Shown piece after piece: positions 14,947 to 29,702 of a DNA stretch of 40,079 nucleotides; within the stretch, counting starts at the first letter, position 1, and every line of letters begins with the position of its first letter. The notes under the pieces were generated by a model, which was not told the DNA's origin, searched no databases, and saw nothing but the letters and a program-made list of their open reading frames with translations. Source of the stretch: Gemmatimonadota bacterium. GTDB taxonomy: Bacteria; Gemmatimonadota; Gemmatimonadetes; Gemmatimonadales; JACORV01. The translations under genes and the position numbers were made by a program. The stretch spans positions 1 to 40,079 of the forward strand of contig JACQVG010000018.1 of assembly GCA_016209905.1 (NCBI GenBank). The letters run 5' to 3'.

Positions 14947-15825
14947 GTGACGACCGTCGCCGAGCCGGCGCCGCTCAGCTTCGCCCGGCCTAGGGCGATC
15001 CGGCCGCTCGGCCGCCAGCTGGCGGCGCTCGCCCGCTACGAGCTCGCCGTGGAGATGCGGGGCAGAATCCTGCCGGTCTTCGCCGTCGGCTTCGCGCTCG
15101 CGGCGCTGGCGGTCGCGCTCGTGGGTATGTCGGCGGGCGGCACGATCCTCGTGCAGGGATTCGGCCGGACGGCGGTCAGCCTGCTCCAACTCTCCCTCTG
15201 GGTCGTCCCGCTGGTCGGGCTGGCGGTGAGCGCTCTCGCCGCAGCCGACGGCTACGACATGGAGACGCTGGCCGCGCAGCCCATCGGCCGGGGCACCCTG
15301 GTCGTGGGCCGCGCGCTCGGGCGCTTCGTCGCGCTGGGCGCGGCGGTGGCGGTCGGTTACGGCGTGGCGGGCGTCGTGATCGCGGGGGCGGCCGGGACGG
15401 GCGACGCGCTGCGCTACCTCGGCCTGGTGGGCGTGGCGGTCGCGCTGGCGGCAGCGAGCACCAGCCTCGGCACGCTGGCGGGCGTCGCTGCGCGCACCCG
15501 CACGCGAGCGCTGGCGCTCGCCGTCGGACTGTGGTTCGTCCTCGCGCTGGGGTTCGACCTGGCGGCCATCGCCGCGCTCGGCGTTCTGCCGCGCGCCCAG
15601 CTGACCTGGTGCCTGTCGGGGCTCCTCCTCCTCGACCCGGTGGATACGGCGCGCGCCATCGGCGTGGGTCTCCTCGGTGCGGAGGCGATCGCCGGGCCGA
15701 TGGGCGCGGCGCTGCGGCGTGTCCTCGGTCCTTGGGGTCTCTTGGCGTTGTGGGTGGGGCTCGCGGCGTGGACGGCGCTGCCGCTCGCCCTCGCGGCCCG
15801 CCTCTTCGCGCGCCGTGACCTCTAG
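14947..15825 (+). CDS. nosY: ABC permease NosY
   Basis: Multi-TM protein; FGRTAVSLLQL...VPL, ETLAAQPIGR, LLLLDPVD..R. Confidence 0.85.
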   Translation: MTTVAEPAPLSFARPRAIRPLGRQLAALARYELAVEMRGRILPVFAVGFALAALAVALVGMSAGGTILVQGFGRTAVSLLQLSLWVVPLVGLAVSALAAADGYDMETLAAQPIGRGTLVVGRALGRFVALGAAVAVGYGVAGVVIAGAAGTGDALRYLGLVGVAVALAAASTSLGTLAGVAARTRTRALALAVGLWFVLALGFDLAAIAALGVLPRAQLTWCLSGLLLLDPVDTARAIGVGLLGAEAIAGPMGAALRRVLGPWGLLALWVGLAAWTALPLALAARLFARRDL

Positions 15826-15943
15826 GCCAGGGAGGCTTCGCTCGGCTTTGGCGCCCCCGTCGCGGGGAGCCGAGTATCGTGACTTGACGTCGCCGGGGGT
15901 GGAACGGGAATGGAGCGGGGCCCCGGGACAAGGAGTGGGCGCG

Positions 15944-16864
15944 ATGACGTGGAACCCCATCATCGTCGGCGTGGACGGCTCGCAGGAGTCGGTGCGGGCG
16001 GCGGTCATCGGATGCGCGGTGGCGAAAGCGGCCGGCACGGACTGCCAGCTCGTCCACGCGGTGCCCGACTACTGGGGGGCGACCTGGATGCCCGAAGTCG
16101 CGGGCGACCCGGCGGAGTTGAACGAAGCGTTGAGAGGCCACGCCCGCACGCTGCTGGTGAGCGCGCTGGAGGGAAGCGTGCCGAGCCGGCTGCTGCGCAA
16201 CCTCGACGTCCGCGTCGGCCGGGCGCCGATCGTGCTGGCTCACGTGGCGGCCGAGCGTGGTGCCGGGCTGGTGGTGCTGGGCGGCAAGCACCACAAGGGC
16301 CTGGGCCGGCTGGGCAGCAGCACGCTGCAGCACATGGTGCGCACCTCCGACGTCCCGCTGCTCGCCACGGACGGCACCTCGGGAACCGTCGAGCGCGTGC
16401 TCGTAGCTGTGGACCTCTCGTACGCCGCCAGGCCTGCCATCGAGGCCGGTGAGCGGTTCGCCAAGCTGTTCGACGCGCAGCTTCGAGTCATGCACGCCGT
16501 CGAGCCGGTCCCGGTGATCCCGGGCTTCCCGCTGGACATCGGCGACGACGACTGTTACCGCAGCGTCGAGCGGCTCCTTGAGATGACGGTGTGGCCGCTC
16601 GTCGAAGCGCCGGGAGCGGAGAAAGTCGTGCGGCGGGGGCGGGCGGCCGCGGTCATCGTCAGCGAGGTGACCCAGTGGCGGGCGGACCTCGTGATCGTGG
16701 GCTCGCACGGGAAAGGGTGGGTGGACCGGCTGCTGATCGGCAGCACGTCGGAGCGGCTGCTCCACCTCCTGCCTACGCTCACGCTCGTCATCCCGGTCGC
16801 CAGGCCGAGCGATGCCGGCCCTCTGCCGGCGGTCGCGCCGCCGCCGGCCGGCACGGCGAGGTAG
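15944..16864 (+). CDS. Tandem-domain universal stress protein
   Basis: IIVGVDGS, second domain VLVAVDLS, ADLVIVGSHG...LLIGSTSERLL; AGGAG ribosome-binding site. Confidence 0.92.
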   Translation: MTWNPIIVGVDGSQESVRAAVIGCAVAKAAGTDCQLVHAVPDYWGATWMPEVAGDPAELNEALRGHARTLLVSALEGSVPSRLLRNLDVRVGRAPIVLAHVAAERGAGLVVLGGKHHKGLGRLGSSTLQHMVRTSDVPLLATDGTSGTVERVLVAVDLSYAARPAIEAGERFAKLFDAQLRVMHAVEPVPVIPGFPLDIGDDDCYRSVERLLEMTVWPLVEAPGAEKVVRRGRAAAVIVSEVTQWRADLVIVGSHGKGWVDRLLIGSTSERLLHLLPTLTLVIPVARPSDAGPLPAVAPPPAGTAR

Positions 16865-16938
16865 CCGGACCGCCGCCCTAGACGTAGGTTTCGCGCGGAC
16901 CCCCGCGGACCCCCGCGGCCGCTCGCGCCGAGGACCGG

Positions 16939-18207
16939 TTGCCTTCCCACCGCACCGCCGGAGAGCCGCTGACCTCCGACCCCGACACCTTCCGCATCCG
17001 GGAACGGTTCGAGCGGCTGCTCGCAGCCGGGATCTCCATCTCCTCCGAGCGCTCCCTGGACCGCGTGCTCCAGCAGGTCGTGGACTCCGCGCGCGCGGTC
17101 GTCGAGGCGCGCTACGCCGCCCTTGGCATCCTGGGCGAGGACGGCGCCACGCTGGTGCGCTTCGCCGCGTCGGGCCTGAGCGAGGCCGAGCGGGAACGAA
17201 TCGGCGCCTGGCCGCGCGGCCGCGGGCTGCTCGGGGCGGTGATCCGGGATCGGAAGCCGCTGCGCATCGCGGAGATCGGCGCCCATCCGGAAGCCTACGG
17301 CTTCCCCGCCCACCATCCCGCCATGCGCTCGTTCCTCGGCGTCCCCGTCGTCGGGCGCACGGGACCGGTCGGGAACCTGTACATGGGCGACAAGATCGGG
17401 GCGCGCGAGTTCAGCGCGGAGGACGAGTCCATCGCCGTCCTCCTGGCGGCCCAAGCGGCGGTCGCGGTGGAGAACGCCCGACTCTACGACGAGACGGCCC
17501 AGCTGCTGGGCAGGGTGCAGGCGATGCAGCGCCAGCGCGATCAGTTCTTCGCCATGATCAACCATGAACTGCGCAACGCGCTGACCGGTGTGTACGGATG
17601 GGCCGAGCGGCTGCTCCGCTCCCATTCGGGAAGGGCGGCCGCCCGCGCGGCGCGGGAGGTCTACGAAGGAGCGGAGAGGGCGGTCACGCTGATGAACAAC
17701 CTGCTCGACCTGAGCCGCCTGGACGCCGGGAAGGTGCAGGCGGTGTGGCGCCAGGCCGCGCTCCGCGACGTCGTCGAGCGCGCCCGGGCTCTCGTCCAGC
17801 CGGCCGCGGATGCCAAGCGGATCGCGCTGGAGGAGGAGTTCCCGGAGCCCTCGCCCCGCTGCCGCACCGACACCATGCGCTTCGAGCAGATCCTGGTGAA
17901 CCTGTTGAGCAACGCCATCCGCCACAGCCCGTCCGGCGAGACGGTCGCCGTCAGGGTCGAGACCACGGCGGACGAGATCCTGGTGCACGTCATTGATCGC
18001 GGGCCCGGCATCCCGCTCGAAGCGCAGGGCAAGATCTTCGAGCCCTACATCCGCGTGGACCCGGAGTCCGGCCTGGGCTCGGGCCTGGGCCTGCCCGTCT
18101 CGCGCCGCCTGGCGGAGCTGCTGGGCGGCCGGCTGAGCGTGCACAGCGCGCTGGGCCGCGGCGCGACGTTCACGCTGGCGGTTCCGAGCGCTCCGCCCGG
18201 CGAATGA
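16939..18207 (+). CDS. Soluble GAF-domain sensor histidine kinase (DosS/DosT-like GAF with HisKA/HATPase)
   Basis: ARYAALGI...PRGRGLLG...HPEAYGFPAHHPAMRSFLGVP...GNLY; H-box HELRNAL; NLLSNA, DRGPGI, GSGLGL; no TM segment. Start uncertain. Confidence 0.9.
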   Translation: MPSHRTAGEPLTSDPDTFRIRERFERLLAAGISISSERSLDRVLQQVVDSARAVVEARYAALGILGEDGATLVRFAASGLSEAERERIGAWPRGRGLLGAVIRDRKPLRIAEIGAHPEAYGFPAHHPAMRSFLGVPVVGRTGPVGNLYMGDKIGAREFSAEDESIAVLLAAQAAVAVENARLYDETAQLLGRVQAMQRQRDQFFAMINHELRNALTGVYGWAERLLRSHSGRAAARAAREVYEGAERAVTLMNNLLDLSRLDAGKVQAVWRQAALRDVVERARALVQPAADAKRIALEEEFPEPSPRCRTDTMRFEQILVNLLSNAIRHSPSGETVAVRVETTADEILVHVIDRGPGIPLEAQGKIFEPYIRVDPESGLGSGLGLPVSRRLAELLGGRLSVHSALGRGATFTLAVPSAPPGE

Positions 18208-18258
18208 ACCTTTCTTCACGCCGGGTTTAGCGGCGATTCAGCCGTCGCGAGGTATGGT
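18205..18258 (+). promoter_or_regulatory. Response-regulator promoter with shared box, likely leaderless
   Basis: TGAA-N6-TTCAC-N6-TTTAG-N6-TTCAG-N11-TATGGT; ATG 7 nt after the -10, no Shine-Dalgarno. Confidence 0.65.
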
Positions 18259-18264
18259 GCCCGA

Positions 18265-18936
18265 ATGAAGATCCTCGTCGTCGAAGACGATCGCAAAGTC
18301 GCCGGGTTCATCGAGCAGGGCCTCCGTGAGGAGGGCTACTCCGTGGACGTCGCCCCCGACGGCGACGAGGCGACGATGCTCGCCCACGTGTACGATTACG
18401 ACGTGATCGTTCTCGACGTGATGCTGCCGAAGAAAAGCGGACTGCACGTTGCGGCGGAGCTTCGGCGCGAGGGCCGGGGGACGCCGGTCCTCATGCTGAC
18501 CGCGCGGGACGCCACGGAGGACATCGTCCGCGGACTCGACGCCGGTGCCGACGACTACCTCACCAAGCCGTTCAAGTTCGATGAGCTGCTCGCGCGGGTG
18601 CGCGCCCTCGTGCGCCGCGGCGGCGCGACCCGGACGGAGCTGTTGACGTACGGGCCGATCGAGCTCGACCGGCTGAAGCACAAGGTCCGCGTCGGCGGGA
18701 GGGGGCTGGAGCTGTCTCCCAAGGAGTTTCACCTGCTGGAGCACTTCCTCCTGCGCCCGGAGGAGGTGGTGCGTCGCACCGAGCTGTTGGAGAAGGTGTG
18801 GGACATGCACTTCGACCCCGAGAGCAACGTCGTGGACGTGCACGTCGGGAATCTGCGGCGCAAGCTTCGGCAGGCCGCCCAGATGAGCCTGATCCACACC
18901 GTGCGCGGCGTCGGCTTCCGCCTCCAGAAACCCTAG
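18265..18936 (+). CDS. OmpR/PhoB-family response regulator (CusR/CopR-like)
   Basis: ILVVEDD, LDVMLP, LTARD, GADDYLTKPF, VWDMHFDPESNVVDVHV, IHTVRGVGF. Confidence 0.95.
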   Translation: MKILVVEDDRKVAGFIEQGLREEGYSVDVAPDGDEATMLAHVYDYDVIVLDVMLPKKSGLHVAAELRREGRGTPVLMLTARDATEDIVRGLDAGADDYLTKPFKFDELLARVRALVRRGGATRTELLTYGPIELDRLKHKVRVGGRGLELSPKEFHLLEHFLLRPEEVVRRTELLEKVWDMHFDPESNVVDVHVGNLRRKLRQAAQMSLIHTVRGVGFRLQKP

Positions 18937-18943
18937 GCCTCGA

Positions 18944-18997
18944 TGATGGGATCTTCACGCAACTTTCACGCTGCCTTCATCCGGCGCGGGCTAGGCT
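18944..18997 (+). promoter_or_regulatory. Promoter with shared box pointing into an ORF-poor structured region
   Basis: TGAT-N6-TTCAC-N6-TTCAC-N6-TTCAT-N11-TAGGCT. Confidence 0.65.
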
Positions 18998-19003
18998 CGC
19001 TGT

Positions 19004-19260
19004 GACCACCCGAATCGGTGGTCGGTGCGGGATCGCCCCTGAGGAGGGGCCGGCGCTCAAAACGCCGCCGACGGATCGGTTCGCTCGGAGTCACCGGCCG
19101 CACGTTCACTGGCTCGCGCCGGTACGAGAACACGAAACCCGGCGACAAACAGGCACTCGAGGAGCGGACGCCATCGGGTCAGGCACGACCCGACCAAAGT
19201 GATCGGTCGGAAGAAATGTCCTCCAGCCCCCGCGCTCCCCCGGAGAACGGGGGCTGATCT
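19004..19260 (+). ncRNA. Putative novel structured small RNA
   Basis: Predicted start coincides with the first base of hairpin GACCACC/GGTGGTC; a chain of further hairpins ends in the 9-bp stem CAGCCCCCG/CGGGGGCTG. Confidence 0.5.
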
Positions 19261-19271
19261 CTTCCAGCCTC

Positions 19272-20384
19272 CTAGTATCTCAGCCCCGTCGCGTCCGCGA
19301 ACTGCTTCAGGATGGCTTCCTGCTCGGCCGAGAGCTTGGTGGGAACCTCCAGGCTGACCTCCACCAACTGGTCGCCCCGCGCGCTGTTCTTCTCGATGCC
19401 CTGCCCCTTGATCCGGAACTTGCGACCGGGCTGGGTGCCGGCCGGAATCCGGAGCACGACGTGCTTGCCGTCGAGCGTGCGCACCTTGAGCTTCGTTCCG
19501 AGCATCGCCTGGGCGACGTTGATCGGCACCACGCAGTGCACGTCGAGTCCGTCGCGGTGGAAGAATCGGTCGGGCTCGACCTGGAAGGTGATCACGAGGT
19601 CGCCCGCTGCCGCGCCGCCCGTCCCGCGCAACCCCTGCTCCTTGAGGCGCAGCTTCGCGCCGGAATCGGCGCCGGCAGGCACCTCGATCATCAGGCGTTT
19701 CTCGAGCTTGACGTCGCCGACCCCGTGGCAGGTGCCGCACCGCCGTGACGCGACCCGGCCCTTGCCGCGGCAGGCGGGACACGGTCGCTTGACCGCGAAG
19801 CCTCCGTAACCGAACGAGACCTGCCCGCTCCCCTGGCACTCGGAGCAGGCCGTGAGCGTCGCGCCCGGCGCGGCCCCCGAGCCTCCGCAGGTCGGGCAGC
19901 CTTCCGTCACGGGCACAACCACCGGCACCTTGCCGCCGAGCGCCGCTACTCGGAACGGGAGGGTCACCACCGTCTCCACGCTCTCGCCCCGCTCGCGCCC
20001 GCCGCGCTTCGCCTCGCCGCCGAAGATGGAGGAGAACAGGTCGCCGATCCCGCCCAGACCAGCGTAATCCTTGAGGTCGAAGTCCTCGAACCGCGCACCC
20101 GCGCCGCCGCCGGCCGGCCGGCCCGGGGCGCTGCGCGCCCCGAAGCCGGTGAATCCGCCGTAGCGGCGGAGGCGGTCGTAGTGCTTGCGCTTTTCGTCGT
20201 CGGACAGGACGGCATACGCTTCGGTGATCTCCTTGAAGCGTTCGCCGGTCGTCCTGTCCCCCCCGCCGGGGCTGGCGTCGGGATGGTGCTTCTTCGCCAG
20301 TTTCCGGTAGGACCGCTTGATCTGGTCCTTCGTCGCCGATTCGGCGACGCCCAGTATCCGGTAGTAGTCCTTCTGCTGCGACAC
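19272..20384 (-). CDS. dnaJ: Chaperone DnaJ
   Basis: J domain with HPD, G/F-rich linker, four CxxCxGxG motifs, C-terminal domain. Confidence 0.95.
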   Translation of the reverse strand: MSQQKDYYRILGVAESATKDQIKRSYRKLAKKHHPDASPGGGDRTTGERFKEITEAYAVLSDDEKRKHYDRLRRYGGFTGFGARSAPGRPAGGGAGARFEDFDLKDYAGLGGIGDLFSSIFGGEAKRGGRERGESVETVVTLPFRVAALGGKVPVVVPVTEGCPTCGGSGAAPGATLTACSECQGSGQVSFGYGGFAVKRPCPACRGKGRVASRRCGTCHGVGDVKLEKRLMIEVPAGADSGAKLRLKEQGLRGTGGAAAGDLVITFQVEPDRFFHRDGLDVHCVVPINVAQAMLGTKLKVRTLDGKHVVLRIPAGTQPGRKFRIKGQGIEKNSARGDQLVEVSLEVPTKLSAEQEAILKQFADATGLRY

Positions 20385-20387
20385 CGG

Positions 20388-21071
20388 CTAGCTCGCCGCT
20401 TCGTCTTCGGCCCGCGCCGTCCAGGTCAGCACCGCCACGCGCGCCGGTCTGAGGAGCGTGCCCCGGAAGCGATAGCCGTGCTGGAACACATCGCCGACCG
20501 TGTGGTCCGCCTCCGGCGAGGGCGCGGCCAGCGCCGCCACCGCCTCGTGACTGTTGGGGTCGAAGGGCTGGCCGGCCGGATCGAGGCGCTCGAGCCCCGC
20601 GCCCTCGAGCACCTTGAGGAGCTTGCGCTCGACGAGCCCGACGCCTTCGTGGAGCGCGGCCGCAGACGTCTGCTCGGGGTCGAGCCGAGCGACGCGCGCC
20701 AGGTCGTCCACGACCTCCAGGATGCGCCGCAGCAGCTCCGCCTGCCCCCGGCCCCACGCATCGTCCCGCTCGCGAATCGCCCGCTTGCGATAGTTCTCGA
20801 GGTCCGCCGCGGTGCGCAGGCAGCGATCCTTCCACTCGGCCAGCTCGCCGGCGAGCCTTTGGACCGCCTCGTCGGCAGACTCGAGCACCGCCGCGGCGCT
20901 CGCGTCGCCCGGTGCCGCCGCCGCGTCACCAGGCTCGTGACCGACCGCCTCGTCCGTCACCGAGTCCGGTGCGGGCGCCGGTTCCGACGCCTCTCCCGCC
21001 GGGCCGTCCCCCCGGCCTGCGGTGGCGGGGGAGCCGACATTCGCCGCGCGGCCCTGATGCTTCTTTCCCAT
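20388..21071 (-). CDS. grpE: Nucleotide exchange factor GrpE
   Basis: LRTAADLENYRKR, VDDLAR, FDPNSHEAV, GY...LLRPARV. Start uncertain; ATG 21071 chosen. Confidence 0.93.
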   Translation of the reverse strand: MGKKHQGRAANVGSPATAGRGDGPAGEASEPAPAPDSVTDEAVGHEPGDAAAAPGDASAAAVLESADEAVQRLAGELAEWKDRCLRTAADLENYRKRAIRERDDAWGRGQAELLRRILEVVDDLARVARLDPEQTSAAALHEGVGLVERKLLKVLEGAGLERLDPAGQPFDPNSHEAVAALAAPSPEADHTVGDVFQHGYRFRGTLLRPARVAVLTWTARAEDEAAS

Positions 21072-21247
21072 GGTGCTCCCAGCTTGCATGGCGCAAGTCT
21101 GCGCCTTGAACGATAACGCGGGTGGCAAGGGCCGTGCCACCGCGGACAGCCACGACGGCAGTCGCTAGCGCGGCCCGTCGGATGGAGCCGCAGGCGCGGC
21201 ACCGTCCGCCGCGCGCCCACGAGGGACGCGCCGGCCGGCCTGGAGCT

Positions 21248-29629: not shown

Positions 29630-29702
29630 CTGGGGCGGGAGGATTCGAACCTCCAACTTCCCGGTTAACAGCCGGGCGGTCTGCCAGTTGACCTACACCC
29701 CA
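29630..29702 (-). tRNA. tRNA-Asn (GTT)
   Basis: TGGGGTG/CGCCCCA acceptor stem, anticodon arm CCCGG-CT GTT AA-CCGGG, T-arm GGTTCGAATCC; CCA not encoded. Confidence 0.96.

Follow-up and report, generated by a model that had tools for sequence, protein, structure and literature searches.

A previously undescribed structured RNA gene with an activator-type promoter beside a two-component system in Gemmatimonadales

CsrB/RsmZ and CrcZ are stand-alone protein-binding RNAs under two-component control, and crcZ lies directly downstream of the regulator gene cbrB. RoxS/RsaE is not known to require Hfq. DosR is a NarL-type regulator; raiA, OLE and ROOL are orphan large structured bacterial noncoding RNAs (ncRNAs) found by comparative genomics. 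The small RNA (sRNA) DrrS (MTS1338) is described as activated by DosR and as accumulating in stationary phase (PMC5360333). Transcription of RoxS, according to PMC4409812, depends on the OmpR-family system ResDE/SrrAB and responds to nitric oxide (NO), and the RNA adjusts redox and respiration genes. Here we report an RNA gene from a Gemmatimonadota bacterium, found in a 40,079-nucleotide (nt) stretch of contig JACQVG010000018.1 (the whole of which is called “the window” below). The gene lies within a 335-nt gap with an OmpR-type response-regulator gene on its left and a convergent dnaJ gene on its right. The Gemmatimonadota are abundant in soil and groundwater and barely studied; a full-text literature search, supplements excluded, found no described regulatory RNA or RNA motif for them.

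The RNA family is real and previously undescribed; we read it as a bacterial sRNA of the stress-regulated kind, with an unusually rich fold. At the level of sequence comparison, the gene is stand-alone, conserved, strand-specific, non-coding and pseudoknotted, with a conserved activator-type promoter and terminator. That the following stretch is a real structured ncRNA we regard as almost certain:

19004-19262, + strand: the RNA, with a length of about 259 nt; its ends are predicted, the 5' one by the position of the -10 box and the 3' one by that of the terminator.

An unannotated structured RNA of about 250 nt had been proposed here by a first-pass annotation made from the letters of the sequence. 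The proposal is borne out by the negative Rfam result, conservation in two families, strong covariation and the absence of a coding signal. The annotation had also seen no signature of tmRNA, RNase P or 6S RNA and had suggested an Rfam search. In that search (Rfam 15, gathering score) no family, known or of those three kinds, was placed on the RNA stretch, and nine homologous loci gave 0 matches. In E-value mode over 18850-19400 the best match is at chance level: twister-sister, 16.3 bits against a threshold of 34, E 1.2, extending into the promoter. The sole Rfam match at gathering score in the window is a tRNA gene at 29630-29702 (-), 67.7 bits.

The folding energy of the 257-nt stretch (-121.6 kcal/mol, z = -2.64, with 1 of 200 shuffles as stable) is by itself suggestive and no more; the reverse strand gives z = -2.33. 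The case is carried by compensatory changes, which exceed those found in shuffles and with slid partners. In the alignment of 27 long forms, 90.9% of the cells are paired, against 74.2% when shuffled and 39-46% when the partners are slid. Both sides have changed at 52 of the 80 pairs, and 0 of 500 shuffles reach the observed values on all five measures; the pair counts are inflated to some degree, the alignments (A4, A5, A7) having been fitted to the model structure. Ten close long forms (nine distinct) show 91.5% of the cells paired versus 88.3% in shuffles and 34-45% with slid partners; they have 17 pairs changed on both sides. Here 0 of 500 shuffles reach the observed value for four of the five measures, and 82 of 500 do so for the number of further pair types. 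A model-free MAFFT alignment of five sequences contains 16 compensatory pairs out of 86. In it the first hairpin already has compensatory changes, the loop of the terminator varies, and insertions and deletions (indels) of 1 and 2 nt break the reading frame. The G-U pairs fit the + strand only.

The elements of the RNA are as follows.

19003-19024, + strand: P1, the 5'-terminal hairpin; 4 of 9 pairs changed on both sides, 91.7% of cells paired (27 sequences).
19025-19030, + strand: 5' strand of the pseudoknot, N-UGCGG, pairing with 19098-19103; 98.1% of cells paired.
19036-19049, + strand: P2, with the loop GAGG; one pair goes from C-G to U-A in 11 of 27.
19051-19067, + strand: P3, with the invariant stem CGGCG/CGCCG; 4 of 5 pairs never vary.
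19068-19077 with 19201-19210, + strand: P4, a long-range helix; 7 of 9 pairs changed on both sides.
19079-19087 with 19161-19169, + strand: P5, a long-range helix; 9 of 9 pairs changed on both sides.
19090-19146, + strand: core domain P6-P7-P8, present in long and short forms; in P6, 4 of 8 pairs changed on both sides.
19171-19196, + strand: variable hairpins P9 and P10, enclosed by the 3' strands of P4 and P5 (19161-19210).
19211-19223, + strand: linker AAGAAAUGUCCUC, CU-rich, with an end resembling an anti-Shine-Dalgarno sequence just before the terminator.
19224-19265, + strand: intrinsic terminator; stem 19224-19232 with 19248-19256, variable loop, U-poor tail in the window.

Seven hairpins had been drawn in the first-pass annotation. 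Five of them (P1, P2, P3, the one at 19177-19190 and the terminator at 19224-19256) agree with the covariation consensus, and two give way to other pairings. The supposed hairpin at 19068-19079 is instead the 5' strand of the long-range helix with 19201-19210, and CGCCGG/CCGGCG at 19117-19144 is replaced by 19090-19097/19139-19146 together with inner helices. The long-range helices, the pseudoknot and the three direct repeats upstream of the gene go beyond that account.

The sequence UGCGGGA following P1 is nearly invariant. Its UGCGG and the likewise nearly invariant CCGCA of the P6 internal loop are read as a 6-bp pseudoknot (19025-19030 with 19098-19103). The closing pair is C:G in 14, G:C in 10 and G:U in 1 of the 27 long forms and A:U in four of the five short forms, so that covariation in the pseudoknot concerns one pair in three states and reflects few evolutionary events. 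The conserved internal loop of P6-P8 places CCGCA (19098-19102, the 3' strand of the pseudoknot) opposite CGAAAC (19133-19138). Helices 9 and 10 have both sides changed at 9 of 9 pairs in the 27 long forms; P9 is mostly mismatched in the window. The accessory domain P2/P3 is peculiar to the long forms, none of the five short forms having it. What the short form retains is P1, the pseudoknot, P6-P8 and the terminator; P2-P5 are missing, and for this reason we take P1, the pseudoknot and P6-P8 as the core. The short-form linker is 3 nt long.

In the terminator 11 of 17 pairs are changed on both sides, the loop sequence is free to vary, and the homologs end in U tracts. A simple terminator scan did not flag 19224-19265, since the tail is U-poor in the window. 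A distance of 6 nt separates the terminator from the dnaJ stop codon, and termination here probably works in both directions. Two weak terminator-like sites on the minus strand, at 19137-19166, are within chance expectation. Two further pairings were discarded: an extension of P1 upstream of the start, proposed by RNAalifold for the short forms, whose bases probably precede the transcript, and a helix of 19028-19033 with the tail beyond the terminator, which is implausible.

The annotation had itself offered an alternative, a GTG open reading frame (ORF) of 66 codons at 19002-19202. This ORF exists, and so does one of 79 codons at 19018-19257; both are open in the window, the GTG ORF lies in frame inside the ORF 18798-19202, and the 79-codon frame has a fairly high third-position GC content (GC3). 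Codon-level conservation, which the annotation had recommended examining, was found in none of the eight close homologs: substitutions are spread evenly over the codon positions (e.g., 17/20/21), and each comparison contains 5-7 indel runs whose lengths are not divisible by three. Among 26 homologs the longest ORFs vary from 26 to 92 codons and shift between frames, and the conservation is explained by the covariation of the structure. We therefore consider a small protein gene here scarcely credible, and the RNA reading stands.

The annotation's loose comparison with CsrB/Rsm sponges, which titrate a CsrA-type protein through GGA motifs, fares no better. Its count of eight GGA triplets is right, and two of them (19030, 19043) are at conserved unpaired places. 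The enrichment it called “modest” is absent: a first-order Markov model predicts 8.0 +/- 2.6, and no more than 3 of the 8 recur in 25 or more of the 27 homologs. CsrA (PF02599) was found in 0 of 6 carrier genomes (89.5-100% complete), with E. coli, B. subtilis and T. maritima as positive controls, and no Rfam CsrB or Rsm model matches. A sponge of this kind is thus hardly tenable. The Hfq Pfam model likewise detected nothing in the 6 carrier genomes, the control genomes being positive.

It could also be argued that there is no separate RNA gene and that the conservation belongs to the 3' untranslated end of dnaJ and its terminator, or to an element acting at the DNA level. Of the 9 loci of family f1, 5 indeed have a convergent dnaJ that shares the terminator, and the reverse strand folds well, as the z-score given above indicates. 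We find this reading very improbable: the RNA keeps its own promoter and orientation beside msrA, hsp20, Usp with a beta-CASP RNase, and cytochrome genes; the covariance-model matches are strand-specific except in the palindromic terminator; and the G-U pairs fit one strand.

We collected 35 distinct copies, all in metagenome-assembled genomes of Gemmatimonadota: 9 of the window type, 16 + 4 + 1 of other long forms and 5 short. The long forms measure 251-284 nt and the short forms 144-161 nt. When 40 relatives were searched at the DNA level, four genomes from two other genera proved to hold the intergenic stretch, with 73-78% identity; the three same-genus genomes among the 40 gave no match. 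The covariance model R1 was built from five sequences (the window and four relatives) and R3 from the 27 long forms. On the window they score 226 and 194 bits, respectively, on the + strand only; across the loci, matches are strand-specific save for the palindromic terminator.

With R1, the RNA turned up in 5 of 27 genomes from the family and, at the level of the order, in 14 of 151 (4/26 in family f1, 0/62 in f2 and 9/62 in f3). R3 reproduced the figure of 14 of 151 for the order; in a sample drawn from the whole phylum its count was 11 of 151, confined to f1 and f3, and families f4-f12 gave 0 of 46. The genome searches scored 12-71 first-look candidates per genome, so non-detection in these counts is soft. 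The element spans two GTDB families, f1 and f3. According to the short-form model R2, the short form is mostly confined to one genus; a match to the core domain alone added four genomes, which carry long forms. In a pattern scan of metagenomes, 5 of 8 stretches are true copies; the other three (L015, L016, L019) are chance matches within a coding region. A similar scan of genome contigs yielded about 21 true copies among 72 stretches, all titled Gemmatimonadota, Gemmatimonadales or Gemmatimonadaceae. The remaining 50 or so, from other phyla and six Gemmatimonadales loci, lie inside protein genes or are otherwise unrelated, and L057 and L098 are marginal (about 19 bits). Judging by these matches, the RNA family is found only in part of the Gemmatimonadales among the genomes searched.

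Upstream of the RNA the following elements are found.

18954-18958 (TTCAC), 18965-18969 (TTCAC) and 18976-18980 (TTCAT), + strand: three direct repeats with an 11-nt period; a candidate regulator box overlapping the -35 region.
18992-18997, + strand: the -10-like hexamer TAGGCT; 11 nt lie between it and the third repeat, and 6 nt between it and the base that opens the first hairpin.

A simple promoter scan found no sigma-70-type promoter here, and TAGGCT does not match the sigma-70 consensus. In 27 of 28 homologous promoters three repeats stand in register and are followed by TAnnnT, with only two in register in L025. The consensus is [T/C]TCA-N7-TTCA-N7-TTCA, some promoters having CTCA as the first repeat, and TAnnnT begins 11 nt past the last TTCA(C/T). 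The first-pass annotation had placed the transcription start at 19004, 7 nt after TAGGCT, on the first G of the first hairpin; this finds support in the box standing at the same distance in 27 of the 28 promoters. In PhoB/OmpR-type activation, direct repeats spaced by one turn (11-bp period) replace the -35 element and end about 10 nt before the -10 element. In its layout, the repeat array has the architecture of such an OmpR/PhoB-type activator site. We consider it likely that the promoter of the RNA depends on the regulator.

The genes to the left and right of the RNA are listed below.

15677-16864, + strand: Usp ORF (tandem Usp); Pfam Usp, E 3.9e-32, two stretches; the true start is possibly downstream of 15677.
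16939-18207, + strand: sensor histidine kinase with GAF, HisKA and HATPase_c domains (Pfam); predicted cytoplasmic.
18265-18936, + strand: OmpR/PhoB-family response regulator, receiver and winged-helix Trans_reg_C domains (Pfam).
19272-20384, - strand: dnaJ, convergent and not part of the RNA; Pfam DnaJ, DnaJ_C and CXXCXGXG domain.
20388-21140, - strand: grpE, next after dnaJ; Pfam GrpE.

The closest relatives of the regulator with solved structures are PrrA, DrrD, and M. tuberculosis PhoP and MtrA. Its orthologs (E<=1e-75) occur in 69 of the 151 genomes of the order (f3 52/62, f1 11/26, f2 5/62). All 14 RNA-positive genomes of this sample carry one, at 73-100% identity. The pattern TCA-N7-TTCA-N7-TTCA has 31 sites in five regulator-positive genomes (3, 5, 5, 6, 12) and 2 sites in five regulator-negative ones (0, 0, 1, 1, 0); the genomes compared are relatives, and both 14/14 and 31 versus 2 overstate the independence of the observations. 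As controls, the reversed motif has 0 sites in all ten genomes and an off-register version with an 8-nt first spacer has one site per set. A scan of G000 with a position weight matrix (PWM) gave 24.1 bits for the RNA promoter and 12.8 for the next site, shuffles reaching at most 16.9. We connect the repeat box with the adjacent regulator because of position, co-occurrence and motif enrichment, which is support and not proof. The regulator does not need the RNA, since its ortholog is carried by G001 and other RNA-less genomes. In G001 (L112; same genus, 98% complete) the regulator ortholog and an ATPase gene are kept, and two small COX1-like ORFs occupy the place of the RNA.

The hexamer TATGGT lies 6 nt before the regulator ATG at 18265, and the regulator mRNA may be leaderless. 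We make no claim of autoregulation. In the f3 long-form promoters (L021-L023, L079 and others) an inverted fourth half-site, (G/C)TGAAG, is seen 11 nt upstream of the first repeat; it faces the divergent Usp gene and may be part of a shared bidirectional control region.

The GAF domain of the kinase begins at residue 37, which leaves no room for a membrane sensor. Its best matches among solved structures are the GAF-A domains of M. tuberculosis DosT (2vzw, E 1.9e-38) and DevS/DosS (E about 1e-34). The motif ..FPAHHPAMRSFLGVPV.. of the kinase aligns with ..FPPYHPPMRTFLGVPV.. of DevS, and ..GNLYM.. with ..GTLYL... The domain keeps a His aligned to DosS His149 and a Tyr aligned to Tyr171; in DosS, as given in PMC4082495, H149 is the heme proximal His and Y171 the distal Tyr. 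By these residues and matches the GAF domain is of the DosS/DosT heme type, and heme binding itself is predicted. The segment with Usp, the GAF kinase and the OmpR-type regulator (15677-18936) looks like a rewired DosS/DosT system, to judge by the single GAF domain, the HisKA domain and the OmpR-family partner.

The Usp ORF opens the cluster, and the Usp-kinase-regulator order recurs in G007 and G020. The RNA gene is 67 nt 3' of the regulator gene in the window, 2 kb downstream of it in G007 and G020, behind a P-type ATPase gene, and 4-7 kb away in G086, G120 and G124. The ATPase gene that stands between regulator and RNA in relatives (about 600 amino acids; L113/G007, L114/G020) is missing from the window, where the RNA promoter directly follows the regulator stop codon.

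The repeat box also allows a candidate regulon to be outlined in relatives; the genes downstream were picked with a GC3 filter, and some sites may be intragenic. Immediately past the short-form RNA, the box stands before hsp20. In G086 as well as G120 it lies at most about 115 nt before a 2Fe-2S protein gene and before a HypB/CobW-type GTPase gene; an aconitase ORF follows it at about 370-390 nt in the same two genomes, a weaker link. CBS, BON, cytochrome c/c7, radical-SAM/4Fe-4S and PAS-GGDEF genes are preceded by further boxes. Among the members tabulated for the DosR regulon in PMC4082495 are hspX, a ferredoxin and a cation-transport ATPase, and the gene content associated with the box recalls this mycobacterial regulon by analogy.

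The RNA gene is its own transcription unit and not a leader, since the hsp20 gene that follows the short form is preceded by a repeat promoter of its own, situated past the terminator of the RNA. This bears on the idea of an aptamer or catalytic RNA, either a ligand sensor acting in trans or an orphan riboswitch with the terminator as an expression platform controlling read-through. The compact pseudoknotted fold with its invariant junction bases would suit such an RNA, and a same-strand gene follows some 20-120 nt downstream in 11 of the 35 loci (ORF calls made with the GC3 filter): msrA twice, hsp20 four times, a thioredoxin locus and unnamed ORFs. A cis-acting leader or riboswitch would have a same-strand gene downstream in nearly all members; in 24 of the 35 loci the gene that comes next is in the opposite orientation. 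There are no Rfam riboswitch or ribozyme matches, and no anti-terminator pairing was noticed, although a systematic search for one was not made. Given also the separate promoter of the short-form hsp20, we regard a ligand-sensing or catalytic role as improbable.

Among the opposite-strand neighbors are dnaJ (5 loci) and a beta-CASP ribonuclease gene, found in 15 of the 16 loci of one clade: L021-L023 and 12 of 13 further loci (L079, L087, L069, L041, L078, L064, L055, L051, L062, L081, L075, L060). This beta-CASP/RMMBL gene ends 3-96 nt from the RNA 3' end, on the opposite strand and tail-to-tail. In 15 of the 16 loci of the clade a tandem Usp gene lies divergently upstream of the RNA, and the Usp-RNA-RNase triplet spans many genera. 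In the short-form loci L024, L026, L027 and L028, hsp20 follows the RNA terminator on the same strand with its own three-repeat promoter; the terminator U tail overlaps the first hsp20 repeat, so that two tandem regulator-type promoters lie within about 200 nt. In L007 (about 1459-1500) and L014 (about 517-535) msrA begins 17-42 nt past the RNA terminator, with TAGACT 9 nt before the ATG, and is possibly another leaderless mRNA. In L018 (98-271, - strand) roughly the last 75 nt of the RNA (linker and terminator) are present as a copy after a cupredoxin-like ORF situated between the RNA gene and the msrA promoter; this looks like an insertion that duplicated the 3' module. The second weak match in L018 (42 bits) is this module, and we reject it as a paralogous RNA.

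We presume the following course of events. The kinase would sense falling O2, NO or carbon monoxide (CO), or a redox shift, and phosphorylate the adjacent OmpR-family regulator; the chances that the signal is heme-based (O2, NO or redox) we put at even. The regulator would bind the TTCA(C/T) repeats at 18954-18980, which would take the place of the -35 element, and recruit RNA polymerase to TAGGCT. Transcription would run from about 19004 to the terminator at 19224-19265, as the sequence signals suggest. The RNA adopts the fold shown by covariation, with a core of P1, the pseudoknot N-UGCGG:CCGCA-N' and P6-P8, to which P2-P5 are accessory in the long forms. It probably acts in trans, and would do so as an output of a stress/low-oxygen regulon which in relatives includes Hsp20, Usp, Fe-S and cytochrome genes. 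At the effector step a protein partner would recognise the folded core, the RNA serving as decoy or scaffold. We give the chain up to and including a regulator-induced RNA acting in trans, the protein-binding step excepted, slightly less than an even chance.

Our commitment to recognition of the folded core at the effector step is weak: protein binding is a tentative choice, and base pairing is somewhat less likely. With the pseudoknot included, hardly any invariant base remains unpaired, and the short form has only a 3-nt linker before the terminator; on these two grounds we lean to a protein. The negative searches for Hfq and CsrA in the 6 carrier genomes point the same way. The beta-CASP ribonuclease is one candidate partner. 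A bolder version, which we find somewhat unlikely, is that the invariant core is a new fold recognised as a shape, which controls a specific protein or small molecule as the output of the rewired DosS/DosT-like sensor.

Base pairing would make the RNA an Hfq-independent antisense regulator, in which the CU-rich stretch at 19219-19223 (UCCUC; CCUCC with the next base), or another loop, blocks Shine-Dalgarno (SD) regions and lowers translation under low-oxygen or redox stress. Other high-GC bacteria are known whose C-rich sRNAs operate without Hfq, and the 6 carrier genomes, in which none was found, resemble them. In the long forms, and in 4 of the 5 short ones, the motif (U/C)CUC stands 1-3 nt ahead of the terminator, and GGAGG-type SD sequences are used in these genomes, e.g., at hsp20. 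RoxS provides a precedent as an NO-induced RNA of an OmpR-family system whose C-rich regions block ribosome binding sites (PMC4409812). The RNA has a single CU-rich stretch, whose CCUC is predicted to be open in the window (unpaired probability 0.75); over the 27 long forms of A7 the mean is only 0.33 (range 0.02-0.94), and in the f3 long forms CCUC can pair with an upstream GGAGG. The short forms keep a 3-nt linker between two helices, L029 is without the element, and the CU-rich flanks are unconserved between clades. The most conserved unpaired 7-mer is consumed by the pseudoknot; a complementarity of UGCGGG to the hsp20 leader was seen in 1 of 4 genomes (L026 only) and was dropped. We hold an antisense action somewhat less likely than recognition by a protein.

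A number of points weigh against recognition of the core by a protein and against the chain that leads to it. Most known sRNAs under two-component control act by base pairing, and the CU-rich anti-SD-like stretch before the terminator is kept in nearly all forms. The preference for a protein was reached by elimination and from the lack of a conserved open seed. Binding of the regulator to the repeats is deduced from architecture, adjacency and co-occurrence only. In G000 the RNA promoter is the sole site above noise, with both the strict pattern and the PWM, and the regulon is visible only in relatives. The region upstream of the regulator gene (18210-18267) stays below 12 bits when scored with the promoter matrix; of its three TTCAC-type repeats one is good and two are degenerate. 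No RNA was seen in 55 of the 69 regulator-positive genomes, and the five regulator-negative genomes come from other genera or families than the five positives. Thirteen sequencing runs are listed for the stretch, and 0 are recorded as RNA. The inflated pair counts, the relatedness of the genomes, the soft non-detections and the few events behind the pseudoknot, mentioned above, belong to the same account.

We believe that the result is nonetheless of use. A new RNA family with a pseudoknotted core is well supported and fit for submission to Rfam. The heme-GAF kinase, the OmpR-type regulator and the box of three TTCA(C/T) repeats form a testable triplet. The box-associated genes give a first outline of a low-oxygen/stress regulon, with a content like that of the mycobacterial dormancy regulon and a regulator of another family. 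Should the RNA work by its fold instead of a seed, the small number of bacterial RNAs that regulate via protein binding would grow by one; if its core is indeed recognised as a shape, the RNA would stand for a class of signal-controlled ribonucleoprotein regulator that is new, and no riboregulator would have been described for Gemmatimonadota before it.

Of the described systems, DrrS (in the DosR regulon) and RoxS/RsaE (under ResDE/SrrAB) are closest in logic, and the RNA is a member of neither. We place it outside the DrrS, RoxS/RsaE and crcZ types because it has no Rfam match, its regulator family is unlike that of DosR, and it lacks reiterated motifs. With DrrS it shares the presumed role of a stand-alone sRNA as the output of a heme-GAF-kinase regulon, the kinase being homologous to the GAF-A domains of DosT/DosS. 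The gene contents are also alike, the repeat motif or the gene cluster involving hsp20, 2Fe-2S proteins, Usp and a P-type ATPase here as against hspX, a ferredoxin and a cation-transport ATPase in the table of PMC4082495. The two RNAs are unrelated in sequence and by Rfam; the RNA described here is larger and has a pseudoknot supported by covariation. The kinase has one GAF domain and HisKA, and the linked regulator is OmpR-type (Trans_reg_C) with three direct repeats, whereas DosR is NarL-type; the promoter is accordingly not of the DosR kind.

RoxS/RsaE resembles our RNA in its link to an OmpR-family two-component system, and the failure to find Hfq in the 6 carrier genomes is in keeping with this. 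RoxS is short and has several open C-rich regions, unlike the RNA at hand, which is about 260 nt long and nearly fully structured, with one CU-rich stretch; RsaE differs in that our RNA has no Rfam match. The arrangement of crcZ is repeated in that the RNA gene lies downstream of its regulator gene. CsrB/RsmZ and CrcZ are otherwise different: here no repeated motifs are present, neither CsrA nor Hfq was found in the 6 carrier genomes, and conservation resides in a single tertiary fold instead of reiterated loops. The Pho-box of PhoB and M. tuberculosis PhoP has the same 11-bp period, and the regulator is close to M. tuberculosis PhoP and PrrA. The predicted binding site is distinct in having its own sequence, TTCA(C/T), and three half-sites instead of two, ending 11 nt before TAnnnT. 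The RNA can finally be set beside raiA, OLE and ROOL, which are likewise lineage-restricted, rich in covariation, equipped with invariant junction bases and transcribed as their own units. It does not match the Rfam models of those RNAs, is smaller than OLE or ROOL and, unlike most of them, has an identifiable regulator site.

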